Shown: positions 8,066 to 25,705, counted from the first letter of the stretch. The stretch: 55,410 nucleotides of DNA from Clostridia bacterium (GCA_045589295.1 JAZNOU010000008.1:1-55410); one strand, 5' to 3'. Notes: generated by a model from the sequence alone, not told the origin. Program-made: numbers and translations.

Positions 8066-8081
8066 ATTGGAGAAATTGACA

Positions 8082-8294
8082 ATGTTAGAAAGAATTGCAG
8101 AAATACTTTCAAAATATACAAAAGAAGAAATCACAGTAGAATCTACTCTTGTGAATGATTTGGGACTGTCGTCATTTGACATAGTGTCAATTGTAACAGC
8201 ATTTGAAGATGAATTTGACATAGAAATTTCAGACAGAGATATCCGTACGCTTGTATCTGTTGCAGATATCATGGACTACATCGAAAACAACTAA
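8082..8294 (+). CDS. Acyl carrier protein
   Basis: DLGLSSFD phosphopantetheine-site motif, EDEFDIEI; GGAG RBS before ATG 8082. Confidence 0.9.
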   Translation: MLERIAEILSKYTKEEITVESTLVNDLGLSSFDIVSIVTAFEDEFDIEISDRDIRTLVSVADIMDYIENN

Positions 8295-8310
8295 TTGAAA
8301 GGAACAGCTA

Positions 8311-9525: not shown

Positions 9526-9542
9526 TCATAAGAGGTAACGCA

Positions 9543-12482
9543 ATGCAAAAGAAAATAAGTGAGTTAAATATGTTATCTTTTGAAGAGGAATGCATATTGA
9601 AAAACCAATTTAATAATACTTCTGCAGACTACCCAAGGGATAAGTGCGTCCATCAGTTGTTTGAAGAACAAGTATTGAAAACACCGGAGAAGACTGCGCT
9701 TATTGCTTGTGATAAAACACTAACATATGATGAACTGAATAAACTTTCAAATAGAATTGCGAATAGCTTAATCGAAAAAGGGGTTAAGGCAAATGATATT
9801 GTTGCCTTTGCTCTGCCGAGAACGAGTTTTCTGATTGCAGTTATGTTTGGCATACTTAAAGTAGGTAGCGCGTACATGCCGATTGATCCTAATTATCCTC
9901 AGGACAGAATCGATTTCATGCTTGAAGATAGCAGTGCAAAATTCTTTATTACTGAAAGCAATTTAAATGAATTTATTTCAGACAATGAAGAAAAACCTAA
10001 TGCTAAAGTTTCGTCTGATAATTATTGCTACTGTATTTACACATCGGGTAGTACCGGGAAACCAAAGGGAGCATTATTGTATCACAAAAACATTGTAAAT
10101 CTCGTTAAGAAACTTGATTTATATAGCAATATAGACGAAATCAAGATATTCGGATTTTTAACAACAATTACTTTTGATGTTGCAACACAAGAAATATTGA
10201 CAGCATTATTGAATGGTTTTACAGGTGTGCTATTTCCTGAAAGACGAGAAACTCATGTTAATGAAATTATAAACTTAATTCAAGCAAACAATATCGATAT
10301 TATATATGCAACACCATCATATTTTGATACAATTACTTCTGTTGAAACGGCTGCAAAAAAATTGTTATCTCTATTGAAAACGGTTGTATTAGCTGGCGAA
10401 CAATTTTATCTTAACGATATAGTAGAAAAATTAAGTAAAAGCTGCAATGTGGTTTTTGAAAATCAATATGGTCCGGCGGAAACTCACGTTGTAACAAGTG
10501 CTCATATATATGTGAATAAAACAAAGAAAATTTGTGAACTTAATATCTTATCAAAAAAAGAAAAAAATACTCTTCTTTACGATTTTAATAATACTTCTGC
10601 AGACTACCCAAGGGATAAGTGCGTCCATCAGTTGTTTGAAGAACAAGTATTGAAAACACCGGAGAAGACTGCGCTTATTGCATGTGATAAAACTCTTACT
10701 TATGATGAATTGAATAAACTTTCAAACAGAATTGCAAACAGTTTAATTGAAAAAGGCATTAAGGCAAATGATATTGTTGCCTTTGCTCTGCCGAGAACGA
10801 GTTTTCTGATTGCAGTTATGTTTGGTATACTTAAAGCAGGTAGCGCGTATATGCCTATTGATCCTAATTACCCGCAGGACAGAATCGATTTTATGCTTAA
10901 CGATAGCAATGCGAAATTCTTTATTAATGAAAGCAACTTAATTGAATTTATTACAGATGACGAAGACAATCCGAATGTAGAAATTACATCTGATAATTAC
11001 TGTTATTGCATTTATACATCAGGTTCTACTGGCGTTCCAAAAGCGACAGTAATAAAGCATTACAGTTTAGTAAATTATTGTTTTAGAAATTATGCAAATG
11101 AAATCATAAATGTAATTAATGACCTAAATTGTCAGAACATAATTTGCATAAACAATGTATGTTTTGATGCCTTTGTGGACGAAACATTTTTATTTTTGTT
11201 AGATGGAAAAACTGTGATTTTAGCTAATGAGAAGCAAATATCTAACTCTGACTATTTTGAAGACTTGGTTCGTACACATAATATTGATGTGATTTCAACT
11301 ACCCCATCTAAATTCAAGGTCTTGGTTAAAAGTCCTGTTCCATTTAAACTTGTGGTGCAAGGTGGCGAAGAATTGACTATTGAACACATCAATTATATTA
11401 ATAAATATTCGAACTCAGTTATTTTTAATACATATGGACCAACAGAAACCACAGTCGGTTGTACATGTGCATGTTCTGATTGTAAATTAAATGAAGCCAA
11501 AAAAATAACTGAACTTGCTATTTTGTCTGAAAAAGAAAAGAATACTCTTCTTTTCGACTTTAACGACACAAAAGCAGATTACCCAAGGGATAAGTGCGTC
11601 CATCAGTTATTTGAGGAACAAGTATTGAAAACACCTGATAAAACTGCTGTTATCGCCTGTGATAAAACCCTTTCGTATGATGAACTGAATAAACTTTCAA
11701 ACAGAATTGCAAACAGCTTAATCGAAAAAGGGGTTAAGGCAAATGATATTGTTGCCATTGCTTTGCCGAGAACGAGTTTTCTGATTGCAGCTATTCTTGG
11801 TATACTCAAATCAGGAGCAGCTTATATGCCAATTGATCCTAACTATCCTCAGGACAGGATAGATTATATGATTCAAGATAGTGGTTCAAAATTGTTTATT
11901 ACAGAAAACAATTTAAAAGAATTTATTTCTACTAATGAGAGCAACTCATCTAAATATGTGGCTGCAGAAAATTTTTATTGTGTTATATATACATCAGGGA
12001 GCACGGGAAGACCTAAAGGATGTATCTTGACACATAAAGGAATTGCGAATTTTTGTTTAAATAATAATGTAGTCAATTATGCCGAAAAAAATAACATTAA
12101 TTTAATAGGTGCATCTGTAAATAATGTTACATTTGATTATTTTATTGCAGAGAATATCGTGCTGTTATTACGAGGACATACAACCTTGTTATGCGATGAT
12201 AATTCTTGCATAAATTCAGCGCTATTTGCAAATTTGTGTAAAAAATATAATGTAAATATTATGCAGACAACACCTACAAAATATAGAATTCTCGCGGAAC
12301 CATTCCCCGAAATACTGAAAAAGATGGAAATTATCGTAACAAGCGGTGAACCTTTAACGGATGAATTATACTGTTTTATGGTAGAAAATTCAAATGCAAA
12401 AATATTTAATCCTCTCGGTCCTAGTGAGTGTTCTGTTTGGGATTTGGGCGGAGATATGCATTGGGAGGGATATTCAAGATGA
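9543..12482 (+). CDS. Protein of three tandem N-terminal adenylation-domain halves (motifs A1-A5 only)
   Basis: AGAGGT RBS and ATG 9543. Three times L(T/S)YDELN / YTSGSTG.PK / FD / (Y/L)GP.E; no A6-A10, PCP or C between units. Confidence 0.88.
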   Translation: MQKKISELNMLSFEEECILKNQFNNTSADYPRDKCVHQLFEEQVLKTPEKTALIACDKTLTYDELNKLSNRIANSLIEKGVKANDIVAFALPRTSFLIAVMFGILKVGSAYMPIDPNYPQDRIDFMLEDSSAKFFITESNLNEFISDNEEKPNAKVSSDNYCYCIYTSGSTGKPKGALLYHKNIVNLVKKLDLYSNIDEIKIFGFLTTITFDVATQEILTALLNGFTGVLFPERRETHVNEIINLIQANNIDIIYATPSYFDTITSVETAAKKLLSLLKTVVLAGEQFYLNDIVEKLSKSCNVVFENQYGPAETHVVTSAHIYVNKTKKICELNILSKKEKNTLLYDFNNTSADYPRDKCVHQLFEEQVLKTPEKTALIACDKTLTYDELNKLSNRIANSLIEKGIKANDIVAFALPRTSFLIAVMFGILKAGSAYMPIDPNYPQDRIDFMLNDSNAKFFINESNLIEFITDDEDNPNVEITSDNYCYCIYTSGSTGVPKATVIKHYSLVNYCFRNYANEIINVINDLNCQNIICINNVCFDAFVDETFLFLLDGKTVILANEKQISNSDYFEDLVRTHNIDVISTTPSKFKVLVKSPVPFKLVVQGGEELTIEHINYINKYSNSVIFNTYGPTETTVGCTCACSDCKLNEAKKITELAILSEKEKNTLLFDFNDTKADYPRDKCVHQLFEEQVLKTPDKTAVIACDKTLSYDELNKLSNRIANSLIEKGVKANDIVAIALPRTSFLIAAILGILKSGAAYMPIDPNYPQDRIDYMIQDSGSKLFITENNLKEFISTNESNSSKYVAAENFYCVIYTSGSTGRPKGCILTHKGIANFCLNNNVVNYAEKNNINLIGASVNNVTFDYFIAENIVLLLRGHTTLLCDDNSCINSALFANLCKKYNVNIMQTTPTKYRILAEPFPEILKKMEIIVTSGEPLTDELYCFMVENSNAKIFNPLGPSECSVWDLGGDMHWEGYSR
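9609..12020 (+). repeat. Three-copy direct repeat, period 975 bp; conserved ~0.45-kb 5' block of each unit
   Basis: acccaagggataagtgcgtccatcagtt at 9631, 10606, 11581; A3 motif acatc at 10041, 11016, 11991. Confidence 0.9.
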
Positions 12483-13099
12483 ATGATGATCAAAAATTTA
12501 TTTATAAAAAGTTAAGAGAAGAAGTTATGGATTTGGTTAAGAGACAGGATACTTATTTGCTTGCAGCATACACCATAACAATTACTATATGGACAGTAGC
12601 TGTTGAAAGAAATAATCCATGGATTGCATTATTACCATTATTTATTTTGTTTGTAATATCTTTAAGAATATGTGATTTTAGAGATAGTTCTGCCTTTCTA
12701 TCTGCATATATTTCCATCTGGTTAGAGAAAAAGCCTGGAATTGGTTGGTCTTATACGAGAGAAAAGTATTTTGAAATAATAAAGAACAAAGAAAGAACCA
12801 AAAGGAATATTTGGATACGATTATTAGACAAAACAGGTAAATATCTTTCACGAATGAGTCTTTGCGTGTTGAGCATTGTTAGTATTGCTCTCTTTTGGAA
12901 AATGCGTGAATCCCATTTTGACAGTTGTCAAAATATCTTTAAAAATATGTTAATTGTGAGTATTCAGTTGATTGTTCTGATAATTCAAATATATAAGTGG
13001 TGTAAATATGTTGATACTACTGAAGTTAAAAAAGAATATATGGACAACTGGAAAACTGTATGTAATATAATAATACAAGAGGAAAAAGAGGAGCATTAA
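12479..13099 (+). CDS. Multi-pass (about 4 TM) membrane protein of unknown function
   Basis: GGAGGG RBS, ATGA overlap with upstream stop; two pairs of hydrophobic segments. Confidence 0.75.
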   Translation: MNDDQKFIYKKLREEVMDLVKRQDTYLLAAYTITITIWTVAVERNNPWIALLPLFILFVISLRICDFRDSSAFLSAYISIWLEKKPGIGWSYTREKYFEIIKNKERTKRNIWIRLLDKTGKYLSRMSLCVLSIVSIALFWKMRESHFDSCQNIFKNMLIVSIQLIVLIIQIYKWCKYVDTTEVKKEYMDNWKTVCNIIIQEEKEEH

Positions 13100-13101
13100 A
13101 A

Positions 13102-15132
13102 ATGATAGATATACATATCGGCAAGCCAATTGCCAACACACAAATTTACATAGTTGATAAATATATGAACATTGTTCCAATTGGTGTTACAGGAGAACTT
13201 TGTATTGCCGGAGACGGAGTCGGTGCTGGATATTTAAATAGACCTGAACTGACTGCAGAAAAGTTTATTGACAACCCCTTTGGTGAGGGTAAATTGTACA
13301 AAACTGGAGACCTTGCATATTGGCGTGAAGATGGTAATATTGCATATGTTGGCAGAAATGACTTTCAAGTTAAGATAAGAGGTTTAAGAATAGAACTTGG
13401 TGAAATTGAAAGTGCCATAGATTCTGTGGAAGGTGTTTCACAGGCTGTTGTTGTGGTGCGTAAAGATGAAAATGGCAGACAACTTATCTGTGCTTTTTAC
13501 ACCCAAAAGCAAGAGGTAGAATTGGTTGATATTAAGAAATCTATATTGGATAAACTCCCTAAATATATGATGCCACATATATTCACAGTTTTAGAGGAAA
13601 TGCCTTTAACTCCGAGCGGAAAAATTAACAGAAAGGCGTTGCCGGAGGTTGATTTAACCAACATTTCAAATGATGTAGAATATATAAAACCTCAAACCCA
13701 TATGCAGATAGCTCTTGCATCAATTATGGAAAATGTATTGAATTATTCTCCAATTGGACTAAATGATAATTTCTTTGATTTAGGCGGAGATTCGTTAAAA
13801 GCGATAGAATTCGTATCAAAAGCACATGGTGAAGGTATATATTTTAATCTTCAAGATGTTTTTGATAATCTAACTCTTGAACAATTGTGTGAAAGTATAG
13901 AAAACAACGATAAACAAAACGTTTCCTTTGCGGATGTCGATTTCACAAAAATCAATAAGATTTTATCTAAAAACAAGACAGAAAACATAAGTGTATCCAA
14001 AAGAAACGAAGTTGGAAATATTCTTCTTGCAGGAGCAACAGGCTTTTTAGGCATGCACTTGCTTTCCGATTTCCTTTATAATGACACCGGAATTGCATAT
14101 TGCCTTGTACGTGGCATTGATACAAAATCTGCAAAAGAGAGATTCTATGAATTATTGCATTTCTATTTTGGAGAAAAATATGATAATAGTGACAGAATAG
14201 TTGTTATTTGTGCAGACTTACATAAAGAAAAATTTGATTTGACTGACACAGAATATAACATGTTGCTTTCAAATATTGACACTGTAATAAATGCAGCCGC
14301 AACAGTTAAACACTATGGCTCTTACGAATATTTCTATGAAGCAAATGTTGAAACCGTACATCAGTTGATTGACTTCTGCAAAAAATCAAATGCCAAACTT
14401 ATTCATACATCAACATTAAGTGTTTCAGGCAACAGCTTTGAAGAATATGAAAATAACAACGAAATGCGTTTTGGAGAAGATAATTTGTATATTGGACAAC
14501 CTCTTGATAATGTGTATGCGCGCAGCAAATTTGAGGCAGAAAAAGCAGTTCTTGAGGCTATGAGTGATGGTTTGCATGCAAACATCATGCGAATGGGTTT
14601 TCTTTCAAACCGTTATAGCGATTCTGTGTTCCAGAGGAACTATGAAAGCAATGCTTTCTTAAAGCGTATTATGGCTATTATCAAACTTGGAATGATACCA
14701 AAAAGTTTTGAGCAAATGCCAATTGAATTTACTCCCATTGATTTAGCGGCAAATGCAGTTATGATAATTACAAGGAATTTTAATAATTACTTTAATGTAT
14801 TTCATATCTGCAATGTAAAAACCATTCCTATGGGACAAGTGATTAACTATTTGCAGGAACTCGGTATAAAGGTCAATGTGATTGAAGATGTTGAGTTTTA
14901 CGATACTTTAAAAAATATTAAGCAAAATAATGAAAATAGCAATATTTTTGAGGTGTTTGCAAACGATTTTAAAGACGGCAACAAATTGGATTATTCAAGT
15001 AAAATAGTTCTTGATAATGACTTCTCTGTTGAGTATTTAAAACAACTTGGTTTTGAATGGTCTGATATTGATTTTGAGTATATAAAGAGATATATTGAAT
15101 ATTTCAAAAAAATTGGGTATTTGGAGGTGTAA
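13102..15132 (+). CDS. NRPS: C-terminal half of adenylation domain (A6-A10) + PCP + thioester reductase
   Basis: Starts IGKPIANTQIYI; GELCIAGDGVGAGY, YKTGDL, GRNDFQVKIRGLRIELGEIE, PSGKINR; FFDLGGDSL; GATGFLG and YARSK; GAGGAG RBS. Confidence 0.92.
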   Translation: MIDIHIGKPIANTQIYIVDKYMNIVPIGVTGELCIAGDGVGAGYLNRPELTAEKFIDNPFGEGKLYKTGDLAYWREDGNIAYVGRNDFQVKIRGLRIELGEIESAIDSVEGVSQAVVVVRKDENGRQLICAFYTQKQEVELVDIKKSILDKLPKYMMPHIFTVLEEMPLTPSGKINRKALPEVDLTNISNDVEYIKPQTHMQIALASIMENVLNYSPIGLNDNFFDLGGDSLKAIEFVSKAHGEGIYFNLQDVFDNLTLEQLCESIENNDKQNVSFADVDFTKINKILSKNKTENISVSKRNEVGNILLAGATGFLGMHLLSDFLYNDTGIAYCLVRGIDTKSAKERFYELLHFYFGEKYDNSDRIVVICADLHKEKFDLTDTEYNMLLSNIDTVINAAATVKHYGSYEYFYEANVETVHQLIDFCKKSNAKLIHTSTLSVSGNSFEEYENNNEMRFGEDNLYIGQPLDNVYARSKFEAEKAVLEAMSDGLHANIMRMGFLSNRYSDSVFQRNYESNAFLKRIMAIIKLGMIPKSFEQMPIEFTPIDLAANAVMIITRNFNNYFNVFHICNVKTIPMGQVINYLQELGIKVNVIEDVEFYDTLKNIKQNNENSNIFEVFANDFKDGNKLDYSSKIVLDNDFSVEYLKQLGFEWSDIDFEYIKRYIEYFKKIGYLEV

Positions 15133-15134
15133 AA

Positions 15135-15896
15135 ATGAATGCAAATAATACTACTAAAAACAAACATAAATTAAGCTACTCAGAAAAAATACAAATAAGT
15201 ATCAGCATAGTAACTTTATTAGTTACAATATTGGCTTTCTGTATTTCCTTGTCTTCTTTAAGAATAGCAGAAAATAGTTATGAGTACGCTACCGCAGACT
15301 TTACACTTACTCCTAAAGTAGAGAAAATAGGAAACAACTTGATGATTAGTAACCCAGATATTGATTTGTTCGAAATCACAGGTATAAGTGTAAATGGATA
15401 TGAACGTTGGCGTATATACGGAGAACAATCTTCTGATACATTGATGTTTAATATATTCACATACAATCAAAATATTTCTGATAAAAATATACCTAATTTA
15501 AATGAAGTGAATGTTGATTTAAATTATGTGTATCAAAATGAGGGGGAAATCTCTATAAGTGAAGACGAACAACAAAAATTTGAGACAGCATATGATGTTA
15601 ATATTGCTAATTTGCAAGGAAAAGCTGAAATGCAATTTAGAGATAAAATCTATGAAATAGATGTCGAGTACACAAACAAAAATAGTTATCATCGAGAGAT
15701 AGCAGAGCTCAATGTAATACTAGATGGTAATGGAAATGTTGATAAAATAACAATTACTGATCATTTTAGCTATAGACATACCGTTTTTAATTTGGCCGAT
15801 AACTATAAAGATTTCAGTTTGGCTTGGCAAGATGTTATAACACATGTTGAATCGCTATCACAACGACCTGCCTGGGTGCCATATGAACAAGAATAA
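15135..15896 (+). CDS. Hypothetical protein with N-terminal transmembrane anchor
   Basis: GGAGGTG RBS, 2-bp gap after NRPS; hydrophobic IQISISIVTLLVTILAFCISL. Confidence 0.7.
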   Translation: MNANNTTKNKHKLSYSEKIQISISIVTLLVTILAFCISLSSLRIAENSYEYATADFTLTPKVEKIGNNLMISNPDIDLFEITGISVNGYERWRIYGEQSSDTLMFNIFTYNQNISDKNIPNLNEVNVDLNYVYQNEGEISISEDEQQKFETAYDVNIANLQGKAEMQFRDKIYEIDVEYTNKNSYHREIAELNVILDGNGNVDKITITDHFSYRHTVFNLADNYKDFSLAWQDVITHVESLSQRPAWVPYEQE

Positions 15897-15899
15897 TAT

Positions 15900-16466
15900 A
15901 TGATATACATAGTAAAAATAGATAAGAGCATTGATGAAAATGTTTTAAAATATCTACTCAGGTTTGTTCAAACGGAAAAACGAGAGCGTATTTTAAAGCA
16001 AAAAGTAAAACAAAATACTGATAATATGCTTATAGGTGAAATTCTTGCAAAAGTAATTATTAAAAAGACTTTTGGCATTGGTATTGCTCAACAAGAATTT
16101 GCTTATACAGAATGTGGGAAACCATACCTGCCTAATCACCCCGATGTTCATTTTAACATCAGCCACTCAGGAGAATATGTTGCTTGTACTGTATCTAATA
16201 AACCTGTTGGAGTTGATATTCAAAAGATTGGCGAATACAATTCTGATGTTGCAAAAAGAGTTTGCAATGAAAAGGAACTTGTTCAAATTGAAAACAGTTT
16301 AGATAGAGCATCGGAATTTACAAAACTATGGGCACAAAAAGAATCAGTTCTGAAAATGTATGGAACTGGTATCGCCGGTGGTGATATTAAAAATTGCCTT
16401 AATAGTTATAATGTTCAATCAGAAAGAGTAGAAGATTATTGGGTGAGTGTTAGTATTTATAATTAA
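15900..16466 (+). CDS. Sfp-type 4'-phosphopantetheinyl transferase
   Basis: GKPY, FNISHSG, GVDIQ, W..KES..K..G motifs. Confidence 0.9.
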   Translation: MIYIVKIDKSIDENVLKYLLRFVQTEKRERILKQKVKQNTDNMLIGEILAKVIIKKTFGIGIAQQEFAYTECGKPYLPNHPDVHFNISHSGEYVACTVSNKPVGVDIQKIGEYNSDVAKRVCNEKELVQIENSLDRASEFTKLWAQKESVLKMYGTGIAGGDIKNCLNSYNVQSERVEDYWVSVSIYN

Positions 16467-16476
16467 TTATAAAGTA

Positions 16477-16510
16477 TAGCTCATATGGAGTTCAATTTCC
16501 ATATGAGCTA
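16477..16510. terminator. Terminator hairpin between convergent genes, ending the NRPS operon
   Basis: tagctcatatgga-gttcaatt-tccatatgagcta 13-bp stem. Confidence 0.7.
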
Positions 16511-16522
16511 CTTATATTTTCC

Positions 16523-17197
16523 TCAATAATAAAGAACAAAATGAAATTTGTCGTTTTCATTTCCTAAAAAAATAAAATTATAGTTTTGAGTTCTGTTTTT
16601 TATCAGATTAAGGGTTCGCTCTTTATAGGAATATGCCTCATAATTATATTCTAAATCAATTGTGCGGGTAGGATCCTTGGTTCTGATTAAAAAAGGAAAA
16701 TAGAGCAACTTTCTTTCGTCGACTAATGGATATGCACCGTTCCCTTTACCAAGTTGAATTAACTGAGAGAATGACTTGACACAATTAAACCATCCTATAA
16801 CAAAGGCAACCTTTCCCTTGTTTCCTGCATCAATCTCATCCATTAGCCAATCAAAATCTTGTTGGAAAACACTCCATGTTTTCGTAGCGGTCCATGTATT
16901 TGATGAGGTTTTCCAATTTTTTAAATACTTTATCTCTATTTTAAAATCCTTTTGCTCAACGTATAAATCATGGTTGATTTTTTTCTCCTTTTTAGCTTTA
17001 GAACTCTCGCCAACGGTGTAATGCACTAATTGTTTAAATGGGTACCCCATTCTAACGGTGATATCCATCTCGTTAAACTTTTCGTCAGCTTCTTTCTTCA
17101 ATTTTTCCTGTGTATATCCCTTATAGGAGATATTTAATTCGTCAATAATTAATAAGCATGTTGATACCAAATATTGATCAATTGTAGGTCCTCTCAT
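16523..17197 (-). CDS. Hypothetical protein, possible PD-(D/E)xK nuclease fold
   Basis: GGAGG RBS; HDLYV...KIEIKY motif. Confidence 0.5.
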   Translation of the reverse strand: MRGPTIDQYLVSTCLLIIDELNISYKGYTQEKLKKEADEKFNEMDITVRMGYPFKQLVHYTVGESSKAKKEKKINHDLYVEQKDFKIEIKYLKNWKTSSNTWTATKTWSVFQQDFDWLMDEIDAGNKGKVAFVIGWFNCVKSFSQLIQLGKGNGAYPLVDERKLLYFPFLIRTKDPTRTIDLEYNYEAYSYKERTLNLIKNRTQNYNFIFLGNENDKFHFVLYY

Positions 17198-17283
17198 TTA
17201 CTTTTCCTCCTAGTTTTATTAGAATAGCCATTTCATTACGAAAGTAGTATGTGTAATTTTAAAAATTTATTTATAGGTAAATA

Positions 17284-17341
17284 ATTCCTTCGTTGACTTC
17301 CGCCTCTTCTTGTGGTACTGTTTGTGTTGCAAAGGAGGTGA
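17284..17341 (+). repeat. Promoter+RBS module, copy 2
   Basis: attccttcgTTGACTtccgcctcttcttgTGgTACTGTttgtgttgcaaAGGAGGTGa. Confidence 0.7.
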
Positions 17342-17347
17342 AGTTAA

Positions 17348-17632
17348 GTGAAAGTACTTGAAGAATTTTGGTATGGGAATATCAATCCGCTGGAAAGACC
17401 ATTTCAAAGTCAAAGAAAATTTGACAAGGTATTCAGGTTATTAACCAAAAACGAAGAAGAATTGCTCAAAAACTTAAATGAGCAGGAAAAAGAATTGTTT
17501 AATAAGGTCAAAGTGTGTTATGACGAAATGATACAAATTACAGAATGTCAAACATTCATAAAGGGATTTAAATTAGGAGCAAGGGTCTTTATAGAATGCT
17601 TTGAAAACGATACCGACATATTCGATGAATGA
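17348..17632 (+). CDS. DUF6809-like small protein
   Basis: LEEFWYGNINP N-terminus and F..GFKLGAR C-terminus. Confidence 0.75.
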   Translation: MKVLEEFWYGNINPLERPFQSQRKFDKVFRLLTKNEEELLKNLNEQEKELFNKVKVCYDEMIQITECQTFIKGFKLGARVFIECFENDTDIFDE

Positions 17633-17655
17633 AATTCGAGTATGTCGGTATTTTT
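17611..17655 (+). terminator. Intrinsic terminator
   Basis: taccgacata...tatgtcggta followed by ttttt. Confidence 0.6.
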
Positions 17656-17681
17656 ATATCAAAATGAAAGGAGCGGAACTT

Positions 17682-18230
17682 ATGAAAAAGAAAATAATAT
17701 GTACGGTACTTGCTACAACGAGGTTGCTATCACAAACTGCATCGGTAGCCCCTTGGTGACTCAGTAAATACAGAGTGACATTTGACAACGAACTCGGAAT
17801 CGTGGGAAATGTAACCTTGCAATTCGCATCGGACGGCGGAAACTTTATCAGTCCAATAACCAAAAGATACGGTGAGAGAATCAGCCTTGAAAGTTACATC
17901 CCCATAAAATATGGATACACTTTCCAAGGCTGGTTCACAGACTCACGAACAAAGCAGAATCAGGTAACAACATTTAAATTCACCAAGCCGGATGTTCTCT
18001 ATGCAAAATGGGAAAAGAATCCCGAAGAACCTATAAATCCAAATGACGAAATTATGGCAAAAGACACCTGCTACCTCACAGATGAGGAAACAAAAATGCG
18101 AAATAAAATTATAGAAGAAATGAATAAGGCATACATAGAAGGATTCGGCTATGTAGCACCGGCCAAGACAAAAACAATCATCGTAGACTCAGATGGCGAC
18201 ATAAATAAAATGATCGGCACAATGGAATAA
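17682..18230 (+). pseudogene. Secreted InlB B-repeat (Listeria-Bacteroides repeat) protein with in-frame TGA at codon 26
   Basis: AAGGAG RBS, MKKKIICTVLA signal-like start in frame with ORF 17775-18230; TGA at 17757; P.KYGYTFQGWF...LYAKW repeat motif. Confidence 0.65.
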
Positions 18231-18290
18231 TATTAAAAATAAAAGCGAGCTACACGGGTTTAAACCGCACTTAGTGACATCAATCTTATG

Positions 18291-18322
18291 CAGGTAGGGT
18301 AATTACACCCTACCTGTTTTTT
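18291..18322 (+). terminator. Intrinsic terminator
   Basis: caggtagggt-aattac-accctacctg-tttttt. Confidence 0.75.
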
Positions 18323-18389
18323 GACAACTAAATCTAAAATAAGAAGAGATTTTTAATAATATTAAATGGTATAAATTTCTTGATATATC

Positions 18390-18418
18390 TTGAAAGAAGT
18401 CGAAAAATATGGTATTAT
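18390..18418 (+). promoter_or_regulatory. Fixed sigma-A promoter reading into the invertible cassette
   Basis: TTGAAA-17 bp-TATTAT with TG extension; -10 abuts the inverted repeat. Confidence 0.65.
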
Positions 18419-18459
18419 ATCAATAAAGGATAATAATAAATTATCTATCAGGGAGAAGT
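18417..18459 (+). repeat. Left 43-bp inverted repeat (contains RBS)
   Basis: atatcaataaaggataataataaattatctatcagggagaagt; exact reverse complement of 21040-21082. Confidence 0.92.
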
Positions 18460-18468
18460 AGTGAAATA

Positions 18469-19593
18469 ATGCAAATAGATAGATTAATTAATATAGACAA
18501 AATATGGGATTTACAACATGAATTTGAAAGAAACAATAGAATTAAAATACTAAATGTTTCTGATTGGAACTGTAGTCGCGAATTCAAAGACGCATTATTA
18601 GATGTATTTGATTCTCCTACATATGATAATTTTGTAGAATATATTTATTCATATTCTCTATCGAAAAGTATCATAGGACAACTCAAAAACAAATATCCAT
18701 TTTGTATAAAAAACGACAGGGAAGTTATGGTTACTCCTAACAATACCGTATCTATTGTATATATAGCAAATTTGTTGAAACAATTAAACTTAAGAGAAAT
18801 CTGTGTTATTGCACCATCATATTTTTCTATTTATAACGCATTAGATGTTTTTAATATAAATTATGACAAATTGAGCTTACACCGCCAAGGGAATCAATTC
18901 CGTATAGATTCCAACATAGAATGGAATAGATATGATGCCGTTTGGTTGACATCACCTATTTTCTGCAATGGAGTTTCTTTTAATAGTGAAATTTTAGACA
19001 CAATTGAAATGATATCAAAAGAAAAAATTATAATTACCGATGAAAGTTTTTGTCAATATGGTGAAGAACTTCCAAATAAAATAAATCTGAGAAATCATAT
19101 AGGAATATATAGTCCACATAAGGGAATTGGTTTCAATGCATTTAAGTTCTCGCTAATATCATTAAACAAAGAATTTATGGATATATTAGAGCAATGGTCA
19201 GATGTATTGTGCGGAAGTTTAAACACTGTTAATTACGATGCTATTCAGCATTTTCTTTCGACGAATTTCAATGTGTGTCAAAAAGCATACGCACAGTTCA
19301 TTAATACCTCAAGGGGAAATATTTGTAAGTTAATTGAACACAATAAAAACTTGTCCTATGACATTAATTCTACCGGAAATATGATGATGGTATATGCAAG
19401 CAAATATAAAAATTCAGACCTCTGTAATGATGGGTTTTATAAAGAAATTATGTTAAATACAAGAGGTTGCATTTTCCCGGGGTATTTACATGACTATGAT
19501 GACAGTTTCGGTTTTTGTTTTAGGGTAAATCTATCCCTATATAATGAGCATTTCCACAATATATTTCAAAATATTTGTAACTATATGAAATGA
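18469..19593 (+). CDS. PLP-dependent aminotransferase class I/II-like protein (divergent)
   Basis: APSYF, WLTSP, ITDESF (PLP Asp), YSPHK (Schiff-base Lys), FRVNL (Arg). Confidence 0.7.
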   Translation: MQIDRLINIDKIWDLQHEFERNNRIKILNVSDWNCSREFKDALLDVFDSPTYDNFVEYIYSYSLSKSIIGQLKNKYPFCIKNDREVMVTPNNTVSIVYIANLLKQLNLREICVIAPSYFSIYNALDVFNINYDKLSLHRQGNQFRIDSNIEWNRYDAVWLTSPIFCNGVSFNSEILDTIEMISKEKIIITDESFCQYGEELPNKINLRNHIGIYSPHKGIGFNAFKFSLISLNKEFMDILEQWSDVLCGSLNTVNYDAIQHFLSTNFNVCQKAYAQFINTSRGNICKLIEHNKNLSYDINSTGNMMMVYASKYKNSDLCNDGFYKEIMLNTRGCIFPGYLHDYDDSFGFCFRVNLSLYNEHFHNIFQNICNYMK

Positions 19594-19595
19594 GC

Positions 19596-21032
19596 TTATC
19601 TCATAATTTTTATTTCTTTAATGTTAGAATTATTATATCCCATAAACTCATTAGAAATTGAAAAATTACAAGTGCCCACAGTGTTCAAAATATTCCCTAA
19701 ATTTTGAACACTGTTGAAATTATTTAAAGATATCTGTAAAGTATCAATATTGATAGTGGATTGGCTCTTACACTCTAATTCATTTTGTTTTTTCTCTTTC
19801 CTTTTTTCCTTTATGATATCATATACTATTGGCACACTTACATTTAAGAAACCTAACAACAACTCAAACAATATAATAGCGTTGCCGTCACATTGTACCC
19901 ATTGTAAAAAACTTCCCGACTGAGTTTGCAATATTTTAGGTTCTATTACATATTCAGGATGTAAAGTTTTTAAAATTTTTACAATGCTGATCTGCGGTTC
20001 GGCTTCATATTTTATAAAAAGGGTATAGTCCTTTTCTTTATCAATATTTATTTTACTTGTTCTTTTTGCAATAAAATCTTGTTGACAAAAGAAGAGAGTA
20101 TTATTTAAATTTTTCAGTTGTTTCTTATTTTGTTCAAAATCTGATTCTATTAAATTTATTTCATTGTGTAATAGTAAACTTGCCTCAAAAATCATACAAG
20201 GAGAAATCAAATTTTTATTATAGTATTCTTCTATTATATATTTAATGAATTTTACATCATCAGAACTTATGGTAATATTTTTCCTTTGACATAAAATGAA
20301 TGCTTTAATGCAAGCAAAAATAAGATTGTCAACATTGCTTTCAAAATATAAGTTTAATTTTAGAATTGCTAAATTAACAAACTTCATTCTTGTCTCATAT
20401 TCTTGAATAAGATCTGTAATCAATTCATCAAAAGAGTCGTTCCAAATTTCTTTATTTTTTAAGTAAGATATATTATCTAACTCTGAATTTAATAACCCCA
20501 ATATATATCCCATCAAGTATTGGTCAACTCTACATGCAGTTAGAGAACAATTATTAAATATCGAATAATAAAAACTTCCACATATACCAGAATCTATAAA
20601 AGTACAAGTGTCAAATATGTTAAGATACGCTGAAGAGTCACTAAAGTCAACAATTTCAAATCTACAATTATTAAATGTATTTTCTTGAAAGAATGTTCCG
20701 GAAATATTACAATTATAAAAGGTGCAATCAGAAAACGTTGAATCAGATATAATAGAATCGTCAAATACTATATTTTCGAATCTAACATTTCTAAACCAAG
20801 TTGACTTTAGCTCAGCATATTTAAAATTCGAGTTAATTAGATGACAGTCTTCTACTTTGGCACCAGTCCATTCGGAAAGTTGGAAATTACAATCATCTAT
20901 AGATTTACTATTGATATTTGTTCCGTTTAACAATGAACGTTCCAAATTTGTACTGACTATAGTCTCATTGATTGTTTTATAACTTAGATTCATATGCTCA
21001 TGTAATTGATTTAATGTAATTATTTCATTCAC
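19596..21032 (-). CDS. Pentapeptide-repeat protein with unknown C-terminal domain (GTG start 21032 or 21041)
   Basis: N-terminal ~170 aa of xxFxx pentapeptides (CNFQL, SNFKY, STFSD, CTFYN, NTFNN). Confidence 0.8.
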   Translation of the reverse strand: MNEIITLNQLHEHMNLSYKTINETIVSTNLERSLLNGTNINSKSIDDCNFQLSEWTGAKVEDCHLINSNFKYAELKSTWFRNVRFENIVFDDSIISDSTFSDCTFYNCNISGTFFQENTFNNCRFEIVDFSDSSAYLNIFDTCTFIDSGICGSFYYSIFNNCSLTACRVDQYLMGYILGLLNSELDNISYLKNKEIWNDSFDELITDLIQEYETRMKFVNLAILKLNLYFESNVDNLIFACIKAFILCQRKNITISSDDVKFIKYIIEEYYNKNLISPCMIFEASLLLHNEINLIESDFEQNKKQLKNLNNTLFFCQQDFIAKRTSKINIDKEKDYTLFIKYEAEPQISIVKILKTLHPEYVIEPKILQTQSGSFLQWVQCDGNAIILFELLLGFLNVSVPIVYDIIKEKRKEKKQNELECKSQSTINIDTLQISLNNFNSVQNLGNILNTVGTCNFSISNEFMGYNNSNIKEIKIMR

Positions 21033-21039
21033 AGTATTC

Positions 21040-21082
21040 ACTTCTCCCTGATAGATAATTTATTATTATCCTTTATTGATAT
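21040..21082 (-). repeat. Right 43-bp inverted repeat, overlapping recombinase stop codon
   Basis: Exact reverse complement of 18417-18459. Confidence 0.92.
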
Positions 21083-21989
21083 TAAGTTTTCGACGAGGGT
21101 GTTTACGCTTTAATATCTGTTTTTGTTTTGCGGTAGAAACATGGGTATATATCTCTGTTGTGGTTATTGAACTATGTCCTAAAATTTGCTGTATATAGCG
21201 GATATCCACATCCGACTCAAGAAGCATTGTGGCGAAGGTATGTCTAAACATATGCGGTGTCACATGCACTGTAGATGAAATTTGATTTACATATTTGTTT
21301 ATCATAAAACGAACTGATTGATCGGAAAGACGATTTGAAAGTCTGTTTACAAAAAAATATCCTGTATCATCAATTTCAGCCTTAAAGCGTTTTTTGTATT
21401 GCTTTAAGGCTGTTAGTACATCAGGAGTGCAAATCTGGATTATTCTTTCCTTTGAGCCTTTTCCAAATGTTTTTATATAACTATCCGAAAGATTAACATC
21501 TTCTATTTTTAAATTACAAAGTTCCGACACACGAAGTCCTGTTGCAAACAGCAGCTCTAATACGGCTATATCCCTGATAATACACTTTTCAGAGTATGGT
21601 GTTTTACATTCTTCTAAAGATAAATAGGCCTTATTTAAAATTTTTGTAAGTATCTTTTCAGGAATAGTCTTGGGTAATATAACCGGCTCTTTAATTTTAA
21701 AATGAATTTTACCGAACGGGTTATCATCAATTAGTTCTTCGTAGGTAAGATATTCGAAAAATGCTTTTAGTGAAGCAAGTTTTCGTTTAATGGATTTTGG
21801 CTTGTATTTTGAATGTAAACTTTCGAGATAATTACATATTAACTCTTTGTTAGAACAATTTTGCTGATTTCTTGTAAACCTTTCAAATTGTTTTAGGTCT
21901 ATACTATATGCTTTTACTGTTTTAGGGTTAAGACCTTTTTGCAACTCACAATAAAATAAGTAATTTTTTATTAAACTTTGTATTTGCAT
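21066..21989 (-). CDS. Tyrosine recombinase (XerC/D-like), probable invertase for 18417-21082
   Basis: TGLRVSEL, GKGSKER, HMFRH, LGHS..TTEIY; GGGAG RBS before ATG 21989. Confidence 0.92.
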   Translation of the reverse strand: MQIQSLIKNYLFYCELQKGLNPKTVKAYSIDLKQFERFTRNQQNCSNKELICNYLESLHSKYKPKSIKRKLASLKAFFEYLTYEELIDDNPFGKIHFKIKEPVILPKTIPEKILTKILNKAYLSLEECKTPYSEKCIIRDIAVLELLFATGLRVSELCNLKIEDVNLSDSYIKTFGKGSKERIIQICTPDVLTALKQYKKRFKAEIDDTGYFFVNRLSNRLSDQSVRFMINKYVNQISSTVHVTPHMFRHTFATMLLESDVDIRYIQQILGHSSITTTEIYTHVSTAKQKQILKRKHPRRKLNINKG

Positions 21990-22020
21990 AAAATAACTCC
22001 CTTTGTATTTAAATTTAATC

Positions 22021-22067
22021 AAAATGACGGTATATTCGAGTCCTTTGCCCGAATATACCGTCATTTT
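22021..22067 (-). terminator. Terminator hairpin after DUF6076-like gene
   Basis: aaaatgacggtatattcg...cgaatataccgtcatttt. Confidence 0.7.
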
Positions 22068-22086
22068 TAGTTCAATAATATTTATC

Positions 22087-23172
22087 TTATATTTCTCTCA
22101 GTAGCCTAATTGCTTCATCAAGTGAAATTTCTCCGGACTCACCACGCTCTTTAATATCCATAGCTAATGTAATCTTTTCAAGCCACTCAGGATACTCCAA
22201 TCCATTTGATTTCCGCTTGGCTAATCGGTCATAGGCTCTGTCATATTCTTTTTTTAGAGGAGACCTAAATTCATCTGAGTTTTCTTTTTTGTGAGGTCCT
22301 ACCTTGCTGCATATCCTGCCTTTTGGATCGTTAGGAGCCACTCTGTTGCAATAGTGAGTATCATGACCGGTTGGCAAAAGAAAAAATCGTTTGCAATTAT
22401 GACATCGTTTAGGTGAATGCTTAACATTTAATCCTCTAAATAAGTCTGAGTTTAGAAAGCCGCCAAGAGACCTGAAAATCACTCTTTCTGCCAATATATA
22501 ATTTTCTTTGCAATCAGGGTCGGGACAGGTGACATATTCAATATTTGCTGGCATTTCTGCTTTAAATGTAATTGCAGGATATTTTGGGATAAGAGATTCA
22601 AGTTTTTGCTGTAATTCGCTATTATTCAGAAACTGATATATTGCGTGTGCAAAATGCGTAGGAGTTCTTGCCGAAACATTTTCTATATATAAATCAACAA
22701 ATGCAGTGGCATATATTTTAAAAATCAATATTTCATCATTGATTGATAACAAGCCCACTAAAATTCTGTTTAATATGCTTCTGCTCTCGCTTTTAGGATA
22801 AGTTTCATATATTCCCTTGAACTCTGATATATATCTTTTTTTATCAAATTCAAAGCGGTCATACAAAGGCAGGCTAAGAATAACATCTAATGCTTTGTTT
22901 AGGTACGGAGCAAAGTCATTAAAACTGCATGATGATATAATCATTAAATTTGATTCATATTCCCCATAAAGTTTTTCTAGAAATGCTTTCCTTAAATCTG
23001 ATAATACTGTTTTCAAATTATCAAGCTGTTCGTCTGATAATTCCAAAATTTCAGTTGAAATCTGACCAAGCGAGACTTTTTCTTTTCCGATAATAACATA
23101 ATCTTTATAAAATTGTGCTGTTATATATCCAAAATCAAATGGTTTTTCATCTAAACTTTTTATACTTGCCAT
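22087..23172 (-). CDS. DUF6076-like protein with C-terminal Cys cluster (probable Zn-binding regulator)
   Basis: RCHNCKRFF......YCNR.AP......CSKVG motif common in Clostridial elements. Confidence 0.65.
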   Translation of the reverse strand: MASIKSLDEKPFDFGYITAQFYKDYVIIGKEKVSLGQISTEILELSDEQLDNLKTVLSDLRKAFLEKLYGEYESNLMIISSCSFNDFAPYLNKALDVILSLPLYDRFEFDKKRYISEFKGIYETYPKSESRSILNRILVGLLSINDEILIFKIYATAFVDLYIENVSARTPTHFAHAIYQFLNNSELQQKLESLIPKYPAITFKAEMPANIEYVTCPDPDCKENYILAERVIFRSLGGFLNSDLFRGLNVKHSPKRCHNCKRFFLLPTGHDTHYCNRVAPNDPKGRICSKVGPHKKENSDEFRSPLKKEYDRAYDRLAKRKSNGLEYPEWLEKITLAMDIKERGESGEISLDEAIRLLREI

Positions 23173-23235
23173 ATACTCACTTCCACGATACATAATTTAT
23201 ATTTCCACTACTTTTGTAAATGACGGCAAAATCGG

Positions 23236-23264
23236 TTGACGCACTTCTTGCAATATGTTAGAAT
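23236..23264 (+). promoter_or_regulatory. Sigma-A promoter toward tnpW-like/serine recombinase genes
   Basis: TTGACG-17 bp-TAGAAT with TG extension. Confidence 0.6.
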
Positions 23265-23277
23265 AGCCACACAACAA

Positions 23278-23306
23278 ATTATACACGATGTAAATAAAAA
23301 TGTCAA
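23278..23306 (-). promoter_or_regulatory. Consensus sigma-A promoter for DUF6076-like gene
   Basis: Minus strand TTGACA-17 bp-TATAAT. Confidence 0.75.
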
Positions 23307-23696
23307 TCGTGGAATTTGAGCCTTGAAAATTTAATAGCTTGCACGGTGAGTTATACAACACAGTGAGCGCCAAGACTTCGTCGGAACAAGCAAATATTTA
23401 TTCGTTTCCGCATAAATGCGAAAACTCATTTATATAGCTGTTCCTCCTCTTCCCAAAAATCAAATTGCTTTTCGGGAACCCTATATGACGGACGAGCGAT
23501 TTAACTGTTTGCAAATACGAGGTTATGGTCGAGCAGGACCGAGGCTTAGGAAATGTAATCGGAGGCAAGTGCAAAGTTTGGTGAATACACGCTTATTGCC
23601 TATATTTTAAAAGGCGGTCAAAAATCTATAGAAAGGAAATTCATTAAGGCAATAAAAGTATTTAATATTAATCATTAATCCGAAAGGAGAATTTTT

Positions 23697-23969
23697 ATGA
23701 ATAAGAAAGAAATACCTATGGACTTTAATGAAGACTTTGCTATAGATATAGACGGAGAATATAATCCCGAACTTGCCACATCAGTTAGACGGAGATATTC
23801 ATATAGTATCACAGATAACGAAATGGTAAAAACGAGGAAAACTCATATCGGTAATATGAATTATATTGTAAATTCAATCTTTGATATGAACACAAAGAAA
23901 AATGTTGAGGATCACATACGAAGATTGATAACAATAGATATTCAGGATAATATAGACAAAGTCTCCTAA
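23697..23969 (+). CDS. Transposon-encoded TnpW-like protein
   Basis: AAAGGAG RBS; IGNMNYIVNSIF...VEDHIRRLI motif; position directly before a serine recombinase. Confidence 0.65.
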   Translation: MNKKEIPMDFNEDFAIDIDGEYNPELATSVRRRYSYSITDNEMVKTRKTHIGNMNYIVNSIFDMNTKKNVEDHIRRLITIDIQDNIDKVS

Positions 23970-24067
23970 AAGTCTGGACTTTTCAATCGGTTTAGGGTAT
24001 TGTGTGGTTGTGAAATTTCTACTCACAATACTCTCAATCGGTTTGACTTTGAAGGAGGTTAAGAATA

Positions 24068-25705
24068 ATGTCAAACCAAGATTATGATTTAACACTGTTA
24101 TATTGCAGATTATCACGAGAGGATGTCCTTGAAGGCGACAGCAACAGTATTGAGAATCAGAAGAAAATAATCTTAAAAGCTGCTCAGGACTATAACTTTG
24201 ATAATTTAGTATGGCTGATTGATGATGGCTTCACAGGAACAAACTTCGACCGACCTGATTTTCAGAAAGGGATGAAGTTAATAGAAGAAGGTCGAGTTAA
24301 GAATTTTATTACAAAGGATTTATCAAGACTCGGCAGAAACTATCTTCAAGTAGGAATGTACACAGATGTCATCTTCCCCAAATACAATGTTCGATTTATT
24401 GCCGTGCAAGACAATTATGATTCCAATAATGTTGAGAGCAATGATATGGCTCCGATTATGAATCTGTTTAACGAATGGCACCCAAAGGAAACATCAAAGA
24501 AGGTTCGTGCAGTTTTCAAAGCGAAAGCAGAGCGTGGTGAACGAGTAAGCTCACAGATACCTTATGGTTATGCAAGAGATGAAAGCACACCCATAGGGTC
24601 CAAGAAATCTATCAAGCTCGTAATTAATGAGGAAACAGCACCCGTTGTAAGAGAAATCTACAGATTATGTGCAAGCGGACTTGGTCCGACATATATTGCC
24701 CATATCCTAAAAGAAAGAAAAATTCTCAAGCCGTCGATGTATAGCTATGAGAAAACCGGTAAGTATGGTGCTGCTACCGATGTAACCGATCCATACGGAT
24801 GGAATGACAGAACAGTTGCAGGAATTCTTGATAACGAGGTTTATATAGGAAATACAATAAATCTCAAAGAAACAACAGTTTCATATAAGAACAAGCACAA
24901 AATACAAAGACCTGAAGAAGAATGGATTCGTGCAGAAGGAACTCATGAAGCTATTATTGATGTGGATACTTGGGAAATCGTTCGCAGGGTTAGAGCAGGA
25001 AAACGCAGAAGAGATTCTATGGATGGAATTAATAAGTACAGCGGTCTTCTGCATTGTGCAGATTGCGAACAAAAGCTTTACTTTGTCAGAGGCAAAACAC
25101 TAAAACCATCAGCGTTTCATTTCATATGCAGCAGGTACAGAAAACACAAAGGCGAAGAACAATGCACACCTCATTCTATAAGGGAATCAGTTCTGGACGA
25201 AATCATTCTTGAAGAAATCAGAAGAATTACATACTATGCCAGAACAAAGACTAAAGAGTTCGCAGAATTCATAAATCAAAAAACCTCTGCCGAAAGCCGG
25301 AAAGAATTATCGGCAAAATCAGCAGAACTTGGAAGACTCAAAAAACGAAAGAATGAGTTGGAATCTTTGTTCAAACGACTGTATGAAGATAACGTGTTGG
25401 GACGAATCACAGATGACCAATTCCATATGCTATCTAGCAGCTACACAACAGAGCAAAAGGATGTAGAATTGCGAATTCCGGAGCTGGAAGATGAAATCGA
25501 AGCGCTCAAATCTGCTGCCACAAACACGGACAAGTTCATTGCACTGGCTAAGAAGTATATTCACATCAAAGAACTTACATCAGAAGTATTATTGACCTTT
25601 GTATCCAAAATCGTTATACACGAACGAAGTGAAAAACGATCGAAAAGCGCAACACAGCAAATCGATATATATTTCACTCACATAGGGAATGCAGGTCAAA
25701 TTTAA
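24068..25705 (+). CDS. Large serine recombinase (TnpX/TndX-like integrase)
   Basis: YCRLS catalytic motif, DDGFTGTNFDRP, KDLSRLGR, Zn ribbon CADC...C...C, coiled coil; GGAGG RBS. Confidence 0.93.
   Translation: MSNQDYDLTLLYCRLSREDVLEGDSNSIENQKKIILKAAQDYNFDNLVWLIDDGFTGTNFDRPDFQKGMKLIEEGRVKNFITKDLSRLGRNYLQVGMYTDVIFPKYNVRFIAVQDNYDSNNVESNDMAPIMNLFNEWHPKETSKKVRAVFKAKAERGERVSSQIPYGYARDESTPIGSKKSIKLVINEETAPVVREIYRLCASGLGPTYIAHILKERKILKPSMYSYEKTGKYGAATDVTDPYGWNDRTVAGILDNEVYIGNTINLKETTVSYKNKHKIQRPEEEWIRAEGTHEAIIDVDTWEIVRRVRAGKRRRDSMDGINKYSGLLHCADCEQKLYFVRGKTLKPSAFHFICSRYRKHKGEEQCTPHSIRESVLDEIILEEIRRITYYARTKTKEFAEFINQKTSAESRKELSAKSAELGRLKKRKNELESLFKRLYEDNVLGRITDDQFHMLSSSYTTEQKDVELRIPELEDEIEALKSAATNTDKFIALAKKYIHIKELTSEVLLTFVSKIVIHERSEKRSKSATQQIDIYFTHIGNAGQI

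Follow-up and report, generated by a model that had tools for sequence, protein, structure and literature searches.

In the G segment of Mu (inverted by Gin) and in slpA/slpB of Lactobacillus acidophilus, oppositely oriented genes lie in an invertible segment and the promoter is fixed outside of it. The fimS element, on which FimB and FimE act, is an invertible promoter switch operated by a tyrosine recombinase. In integrons, a tyrosine recombinase gene is found beside a docking site and a platform promoter, and the cassettes are promoterless and exchangeable, some of them with defence genes. The pdif sites are 28 bp long and have a dif-like layout of XerC, spacer and XerD. On plasmids of Acinetobacter, gene modules between inversely oriented Xer-type sites differ in related backbones (PMC13141974, PMC6449649, PMC7399989). 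In the RecV-controlled switches of Clostridioides difficile, a tyrosine recombinase acts on short inverted repeats and thereby changes expression reversibly (PMC5903667, PMC7446863). Here, we describe a locus at positions 18390 to 21989 of a stretch of 55,410 nucleotides from a Clostridia bacterium (GCA_045589295.1 JAZNOU010000008.1:1-55410; this whole stretch is referred to as the window), in which two convergent genes, gene A and gene B, are enclosed by inverted repeats next to the gene of a tyrosine recombinase. We consider it probable that the locus represents a two-gene cassette, carried by a mobile element, that the recombinase can invert and that can be replaced; inversion would toggle the dosage of A relative to B, and the same sites would serve for replacement of the cargo.

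The resemblance to the Mu G segment and slpA/slpB lies in the flip, which would change the gene that faces the fixed promoter. There, the two sides encode variants of a single function, which the flip usually joins to a constant 5' part, whereas here the genes are unrelated, complete and probably partners (A has an aminotransferase fold and B a pentapeptide β-helix, that is, not alternative versions of one function), the recombinase is Xer-like with its stop codon in the site, and the cargo varies. In fimS and the RecV-controlled switches the promoter is inside the flipped segment and the genes are fixed; at the present locus the promoter motif is outside the left repeat, the segment is filled by the two genes, and whole genes would move. 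The likeness to pdif modules is that a module lies between inverted Xer-type sites on different backbones, which is also found here. The pdif sites are served by the chromosomal XerC/XerD of the host, whereas here a dedicated recombinase gene overlaps the site, the 17-bp core with its 7-nt spacer does not have the dif-like layout, and a fixed promoter and convergent promoterless cargo are present in addition. XerC/XerD resolve chromosome dimers at a single dif site with FtsK; the present locus has two inverted sites around cargo. From integrons it differs in that there is no IntI-type integrase, there are no attC hairpins or direct-repeat arrays, and each dock has one cassette between inverted sites. 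Overall, flipping of whole genes behind a fixed promoter and modules between inverted Xer-type sites are kinds of system that are already known. What sets the locus apart is the combination of a dedicated Xer-like recombinase with its stop codon in its own site, a 17-bp core, a conserved one-sided promoter and unrelated partner genes, often with immune-type cargo. The locus is a member of a large and apparently undescribed family of cassettes of gut Clostridia; no published description of the family was found in the literature searched, which took in passages of PMC9881135 but neither supplements nor subscription journals.

The inverted repeats and the tyrosine recombinase

The two arms of the repeat, at 18417-18459 (left or distal, + strand) and 21040-21082 (right or proximal, - strand), are 43 nt long, 100% complementary and separated by 2580 nt, as the initial annotation of the window had described. 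When up to 3 mismatches were allowed, only these 2 matches to the 43-nt repeat were obtained in the window and 0 in 100 shuffles, and the 1.54-Mb genome has no copies besides the two arms. Each arm is composed of an outer 12 nt (ATATCAATAAAG), a 17-bp core of the form GATAA-N7-TTATC and an inner 14 nt. The core, GATAA-TAATAAA-TTATC at 18429-18445 and 21054-21070, is near-palindromic and corresponds to the palindrome that had been noticed in each arm. Inward of each core lies CAGGGAGAAGT; the inner 14 nt contains GGGAGAAG, which provides genes A and B with the same Shine-Dalgarno motif, so that the proposal of a shared ribosome-binding site holds (the inner leader of the left arm, with the motif, is TATCAGGGAGAAGT). 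In the right arm, the outer part forms the codons for the last residues of the recombinase.

The recombinase gene (21066-21989, - strand) encodes a protein of 307 amino acids. Its open reading frame runs from ATG 21989 to a stop codon at 21066-21068, which is the TAA of GGATAAT inside the core, and the gene thus ends in the right repeat, as had been claimed. The protein matches Phage_integrase of Pfam (PF00589, 1.7e-40), has an N-terminal SAM-like domain, and carries R153, K177, H246, R249, H272 and Y281, which are invariant in 8 relatives and which we take to be the catalytic positions R, K, HxxR, H and Y; it is thus a member of the tyrosine recombinase superfamily. The cut-offs of the XerC and XerD models were not reached (TIGR02224, 249.6 bits versus 335.15; TIGR02225, 242.9 versus 329.6), nor were those of the integron integrase models (TIGR02249, 103.6 bits versus 265; NF011946, 68.6 versus 435), and no match to the recombinase was obtained with PADLOC. 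The other recombinases of the genome are 28-34% identical to it over near-full length (one fragment of 51 residues, 51%), and the further Xer-like genes only 32-34%. Judged from its sequence, the protein is a dedicated Xer-like paralogue.

The sites were compared in two sets of relatives. The first comprised 11 recombinase-encoding loci with identities of 56-99%; the wider set comprised 165 loci (numbered with the prefix L below), the best 80 of each of the scans of genome contigs and metagenome contigs, which started from an alignment of 8 recombinases. A survey of homologues for the same repeat had been suggested initially, and it was fruitful: GATAA-N7-TTATC is present at the recombinase stop codon in 11/11 close relatives, and in all 5 of those with >3 kb of DNA downstream, a second, inverted core lies 2.3-3.9 kb away. 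Between loci, the outer arm and the core arms are conserved, and the inner part and the 7-nt spacer vary. At least 1.5 kb of downstream DNA was available for 111 of the 165 loci in the wider set; the proximal core was found in 50 of these 111, and an inverted core motif downstream in 35 of the 50. The 7-nt spacer of this downstream motif is the same as the proximal one in 33 of the 35 loci, with 23 distinct spacers in total, and none of the spacer-sharing copies of the core in the wider set is in direct orientation. Strand exchange by tyrosine recombinases requires an identical spacer at both sites, and the window has such paired inverted sites with an identical crossover spacer beside the recombinase gene. 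An unbiased search for repeats gave inverted repeats of 18-125 nt in 32 loci, with one arm at the stop codon and the other 1.7-5.9 kb downstream, whereas in a control search with upstream DNA no repeat exceeded 14 nt. Together, these comparisons support the assignment of the repeats as the putative paired target sites of the adjacent tyrosine recombinase.

The length of the repeats is not constant. Inward of the core, they continue over 14 to >100 nt of cassette-specific DNA (L003:6907-6979 and other loci), and this extension often spans the ribosome-binding site and the start codon. As the inner part of the repeat travels with the gene, a flip needs no identity of the inner parts at both ends. 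Repeat arms of 62-125 nt in L034, L041, L043, L054 and L133 have 2-3 core-like motifs each, with differing spacers, which suggests multi-site, shufflon-like docks. A third repeat-like stretch in the window (23182-23200, 19 nt, 84%) was considered as a further site; it is without the core motif and was taken as chance.

Proposed inversion and replacement of the cassette

The promoter assigned initially to a position just outside the left repeat was recovered. The region concerned (18367-18418, + strand) has TTGAAA at 18390-18395, a 17-nt spacer and TG-n-TATTAT up to 18418, with 10/12 matches and the upstream TG; the last 2 bases of the -10 box are the first 2 of the left arm, and a second box, TGgTATAAA, lies near 18367-18376. 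A terminator-like hairpin at 18290-18317 (+ strand; a stem of 11 pairs, 6 of them GC, and then a T run) terminates the preceding gene and insulates the promoter region. Most of 32 relatives have an inward-facing -10-like box a few bases outside the distal site, with the sequence TATAAT, TAAAAT or TATTAT and in many cases a TG, and because of this shared position the motif at 18390-18418 was counted as a promoter. The region 18367-18446 is 82.5% identical to L008 over 80 bp. Inside the repeats, gene A starts at ATG 18469, 10 nt past the left arm, and the two genes converge, as had been noted, with their stop codons 2 nt apart (19593 and 19596). The same architecture is seen in the relatives, where, in 29/33 cassettes, the outermost gene at either end points inward and begins directly inside the site (the exceptions are L076, L080, L113 and L141); 3' overlap is common among the convergent pairs, and room for a terminator is absent in all pairs inspected. 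No Rfam matches were obtained in 16500-24500, the fold of the leader RNA is no better than that of shuffles (z -0.29), and the GC content of the cassette (24-30%, compared with 30-40% in the flanks) is not decisive.

From this anatomy and from the relatives, the following mechanism can be proposed. The recombinase (21066-21989) would bind the two inverted 17-bp cores, which have the same asymmetric 7-nt spacer, and strand exchange in the spacer would flip the 2.6-kb segment. Because the genes lie inside the segment and the promoter outside, the flip would swap which gene faces the promoter and which follows the recombinase gene; the fixed promoter (18390-18418) would be re-assigned from A to B. 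The other gene would then lie directly behind the recombinase gene, with no terminator between them, and would be read from the recombinase side. Both genes would keep the same leader and Shine-Dalgarno motif, since these lie in the inner part of the repeat. As the genes end 2 nt apart without a terminator, transcription from the fixed promoter is expected to continue, in antisense direction, into the other gene and on into the recombinase gene. The result would be a reversible toggle of A:B dosage rather than a strict either/or choice, and related elements would replace whole cargo at these same sites. The earlier proposal that inversion swaps the gene behind the promoter has thus gained paired sites, inversion of whole cassettes in relatives and a conserved promoter-like element outside the segment, and for the window itself the swap is read from the geometry. 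Its either/or part has become doubtful in view of the unrelated genes, their recurring pairing, a Thoeris pair in a sister cassette and a weak prediction of A-B binding (see below); the alternative wording as a ratio fits better.

The relatives present cassettes in both directions. Among recurring cargo types, 7/9 are found both ways round relative to the recombinase. The cargo type of the window (clusters 2 and 13) was found in one orientation only, in the window and in L133; in L006 a homologue of A adjoins the recombinase, opposite to the window, and its partner is another pentapeptide protein. Between L076 and L113, the flanks are colinear (74.5% identical on the recombinase side and 75% in the distal flank), and the 5.5-kb cassette, at 86% identity, is inverted precisely from one site to the other. 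A set of four genes (radical SAM, D-Ala-D-Ala-ligase-like, TIR and TPR protein) recurs in L076, L113 and L130 in three arrangements, with the radical SAM gene facing outward in two of the three; cassettes of this type may have an internal third site.

The ends of contigs were also informative. In the 165 loci, 26 contig ends fall within 60 nt after the recombinase stop codon and 4 within 60 nt before its start; within 130 nt the numbers are 34 and 5, respectively. The end of the L007 contig is the last base of the window's 43-nt repeat, that of L004 is the last base of the 40-nt repeat of L006, and that of L010 is 1 nt past the 59-nt repeat of L005. From the way assemblers work, we infer that a contig stopping at the inner end of the repeat reflects reads that continue in two ways at that point; if the repeat exceeded the word size, the contig would be cut within the repeat and not at its inner end. 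Many of the homologues of A and B (P0009-P0020, P0050, P0053, P0057) are on contigs of about 2.5-2.9 kb, which is the length of the cassette and fits assembly breaks at both repeats.

Replacement of cargo is indicated by near-identical backbones with different contents. The window matches L003 over 4763 bp at 94.5% (the recombinases are 99% identical), and this match reaches precisely to the inner edge of the proximal core, at 21054. Homology to L003 restarts at the inner edge of the distal core, at 18445, and extends over 44 bp (18445-18402, 91%); farther out, the left flanks are unrelated. Between the cores, the window has A and B, and L003 has a GT2 glycosyltransferase and a protein of 430 amino acids with a weak CAP12-type TIR match. 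In L004 and L005 the same backbone (92-96%) is combined with two further cargo types and another spacer, and the cassette-specific repeat of the window is also present on an 84%-identical platform, in L007. As the sites mark the cargo differences between near-identical backbones, the locus can be regarded as a cassette dock as well as a switch, an aspect absent from the initial annotation. Overall, the segment of the window can most likely be flipped and also replaced, as far as the comparison of loci indicates.

Several observations weigh against this interpretation. The opposite orientations in diverged relatives may stem from entry of cargo either way rather than from flipping in place, and the contig breaks may partly reflect strains with different cargo; the contig of the window itself is unbroken. 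The check for alternative junctions that had been recommended was made on the Logan contigs of four runs (X1, X2, X3 and X6, from 4 studies) among 20 holder runs from 10 studies, and no strand-changing joint is listed in these contigs, which are unable to report the orientation. Logan contigs are built from 31-letter words, and the contigs of X1 cannot report orientation because a graph of 31-letter words cannot bridge a 43-nt perfect inverted repeat. DNA of the cassette was found in all 4 runs, in X1 as a single piece (18430-21069); record 17 of X3 spans the left repeat and record 28 of X6 the right one, both in the orientation of the window. The promoter scan as a whole was not above chance (48 sites, compared with 38.6 ± 5.9 in shuffles), it gave no recognisable promoter for the recombinase gene, which has a strong hairpin 32 nt upstream. 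The core motif is at the stop codon in 86/159 testable loci and is thus absent from about half of the sampled relatives, which are of another kind or use another site. On the side of replacement, the distal homology to L003 is just 44 bp, and an all-against-all comparison gave one weak pair only (L150/L155) in which both flanks are common and the cargo is different.

In X1, two joints skip the cassette (18444 to 21051 and 18445 to 21054) and place the cores back to back; one side of each has only 21-23 letters, and the depths of 17.9 and 29.6 exceed the 10.8 of the cassette. The joints may represent an empty dock, or the near-palindrome may have given rise to an alignment artefact. Exact scans with the cassette-specific 32 nt of the repeat gave 0 metagenome contigs, 0 viral contigs and, among genome contigs, L007 only. 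The DNA of the cassette was not found in 100 relatives, where the flanks alone were matched, in genome G052, and no related loci were found in a search with B.

The findings can be accounted for in other ways, of which the one nearest to the dosage toggle is that the locus is a cassette dock only. Promoterless, two-sided cargo would then be exchanged by a double site-specific crossover without the risk of excision, flipping would be a harmless by-product, and both genes would be adequately expressed either way, from the fixed promoter and from the recombinase side. Such a dock would explain the unrelated cargo on near-identical backbones with homology that stops at the cores, the repeat shared with the 84%-identical platform of L007, the greater similarity of the cassettes of L076 and L113 (86%) than of their flanks (75%), and the compact cassettes without terminators and with 3' overlap of the genes in many loci; it would also suit cargo such as Thoeris, which needs both genes at once. 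We nevertheless regard it as rather unlikely, because a conserved, strong-looking promoter is present on one side only and the two positions are therefore unlikely to be equivalent, and because the contig ends of L004, L007 and L010 at the inner end of the repeat point to both orientations in one sample. Moreover, two-sided replacement bounded by the sites rests on the 44-bp distal match and the one weak pair.

If, at the other extreme, product were made only from the gene that faces the fixed promoter, A and B would be alternative states, as in the Mu G segment or slpA/slpB. The single conserved promoter outside the segment would fit such a choice, no promoter was recognised on the recombinase side, and the convergent stop-to-stop genes without a terminator would permit antisense transcription to silence the other gene. 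A and B have unrelated folds, however, and are not variants of one function; the pairing of an enzyme with a pentapeptide protein recurs as a unit, a Thoeris pair occupies a sister cassette, binding of A to B is weakly predicted (score 0.53, best control 0.00), and the proximal gene lies behind the recombinase stop codon without a terminator, which together make strict alternation very improbable. Hardly credible is the notion that the repeats are not recombination sites at all, but the ends of an independent transposon or a duplicated leader with its ribosome-binding region. The shared Shine-Dalgarno motif is indeed located in the inner part of the repeat, but Pfam-type domain searches gave no transposase in the cassette, no target duplication is seen in the bases beside the two repeats, conservation among relatives with unlike cargo extends to the outer arm and core but not to the inner part, the spacers co-vary between partner sites, and the core overlaps the recombinase stop codon in all of the close relatives. 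Both the transposon ends and the mere duplicated leader were therefore rejected, and the toggle of A:B dosage combined with exchange of cargo is the interpretation used below.

Genes A and B and the cargo of related cassettes

Gene A (18469-19593, + strand) encodes a protein of 374 amino acids, a pyridoxal phosphate (PLP)-dependent enzyme with the class I/II aminotransferase fold. The name aminotransferase, given initially, is right at the level of the fold: the aminotransferase models of NCBIfam match weakly (E 1.8e-4), and the top hits of Foldseek with the AlphaFold2 model (predicted local distance difference test, pLDDT, 93.6) are aminotransferases and C-S lyases with template-modelling (TM) scores of about 0.7. 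Gene A itself has no Pfam match (PF00155 was not reached), and a phmmer search against the sequences of the PDB gave no match; some of its 43 homologues have PF00155. D191, K218 and R352 are invariant across 28 sequences and are presumably the conserved Asp, the Schiff-base Lys and the C-terminal Arg, which together with the structural similarity places A among the fold-type I PLP enzymes.

Gene B (19596-21032, - strand) encodes 478 amino acids. Its start was placed at GTG 21032 by alignment with 14 homologues; the listed start, GTG 21041 (481 amino acids), is too near to the Shine-Dalgarno motif. The protein has an N-terminal pentapeptide-repeat β-helix, a helical domain and a small α/β domain. 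The designation pentapeptide-repeat is correct for residues ~20-195 (Pentapeptide_4, Pentapeptide_3 and Pentapeptide of Pfam), and Foldseek with the AlphaFold2 model (pLDDT 85.2) returned pentapeptide-repeat proteins only. For the C-terminal half (residues 200-481) no match was obtained, and the Atlas search scores just 0.77. Residues 409-442, between the α/β domain and the C-terminal helices, are lysine-rich and predicted to be disordered (pLDDT <50). The homologues of B number 15. A search of A and B against PADLOC 2023 gave 0 families at E ≤ 0.1.

The possibility that the two proteins interact was assessed by prediction of the A-B complex, which scored 0.53 (0.01, 0.53 and 0.65 in the individual runs), with 0.00 for the best control; the contact agreement of the runs was at least 61% and the pLDDT of the partners at least 83. 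The mark used for such predictions was reached by 116 of 157 solved complexes and by 2 of 215 mismatches, and scores up to 0.60 comprise just 18 of those 157 solved complexes and both passing mismatches. The models thus lend weak support to a binding of A to B. Pairs of an aminotransferase-fold protein and a pentapeptide protein are found again in L006, L133 and L085, and A and B look like two partners of one module of an enzyme plus an effector.

The sister cassettes follow a comparable division. On one side is a small-molecule enzyme (aminotransferase, ATP-grasp or D-Ala-D-Ala-ligase-like, serine hydroxymethyltransferase-like, GT2, methyltransferase, radical SAM or polyprenyl synthase), and on the other a pentapeptide, TIR, SIR2, TPR or large unknown protein. 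At a Pfam E of ≤ 1e-5, TIR, SIR2, STALD or DUF4062-type domains are present in 7/33 cassettes and a pentapeptide protein in 7/33, and 7 of 85 sister cargo proteins have PADLOC matches. In L030:6914-9268 (Hungatella hathewayi WAL-18680) the cargo is a Thoeris pair, in which ThsA (SIR2 and STALD; PADLOC 1.1e-60) is convergent with a TIR protein between the inverted sites. Thoeris requires both proteins at once, which argues against strict alternation as the purpose of such cassettes.

An enzyme that restrains a toxic effector has been described for Hailong (PMC13434031). The likeness is that of a two-gene system of enzyme and effector, and B has pentapeptide-type repeats in common with HalA (NCBIfam E 2e-7, ~48 residues). 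The match of the fold of B to HalA is poor (9nyi_A at rank 44, TM 0.10/0.13), and A is a PLP enzyme and not a nucleotidyltransferase. By analogy, Hailong is a possible model for the logic of the cargo.

Taken further, and more tentatively, the locus may be one dock of a widespread, undescribed system of gut Clostridia, in which a dedicated Xer-like recombinase flips and exchanges promoterless, two-sided cassettes with two-gene immune modules, comparable to an integron-like bank of defence pairs. Such modules might be enzyme-plus-pentapeptide pairs as well as pairs of the Thoeris, TIR or SIR2 kind; the dosage of effector to regulator would depend on the flip, giving phase-variable immunity, and A and B might form a new defence pair, its pentapeptide-repeat effector under the control of a PLP enzyme. 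If this were true, gut Clostridia would have a dedicated and widespread device to store, flip and swap whole two-gene modules, unlike known invertible promoters and partial-gene shufflons. It would also be a source of many candidate defence pairs, most of them without a PADLOC match, would provide a simple recombinase with a 17-bp site pair for engineering, and would account for a recurrent class of assembly breaks in gut metagenomes.

Surroundings of the locus

Beyond the recombinase gene, a strong terminator-like hairpin (22021-22067, - strand; 20 pairs, with 18-nt perfect arms) separates it from the gene of a DUF6076 protein. The backbone common to the relatives extends from 22087 to 25705 and comprises, by Pfam, this DUF6076 gene (22087-23193, - strand), a TnpW-like gene (23697-23969, + strand) and the gene of a large serine recombinase (24068-25705, + strand); housekeeping genes are found from 26203 onward. 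To the left of the locus are DUF6809 and DUF6550-type genes and a non-ribosomal peptide synthetase-like cluster. This content of the flanks places the locus near the integrase end of an integrated mobile element. The peptide synthetase-like cluster (6515-16466), which is on the same element, comprises AMP-binding enzymes, a condensation domain, a carrier protein with a thioester reductase and a phosphopantetheinyl transferase. Farther to the left, a Bro-N protein is encoded at 766-1641 and another tyrosine recombinase at 5386-6243.

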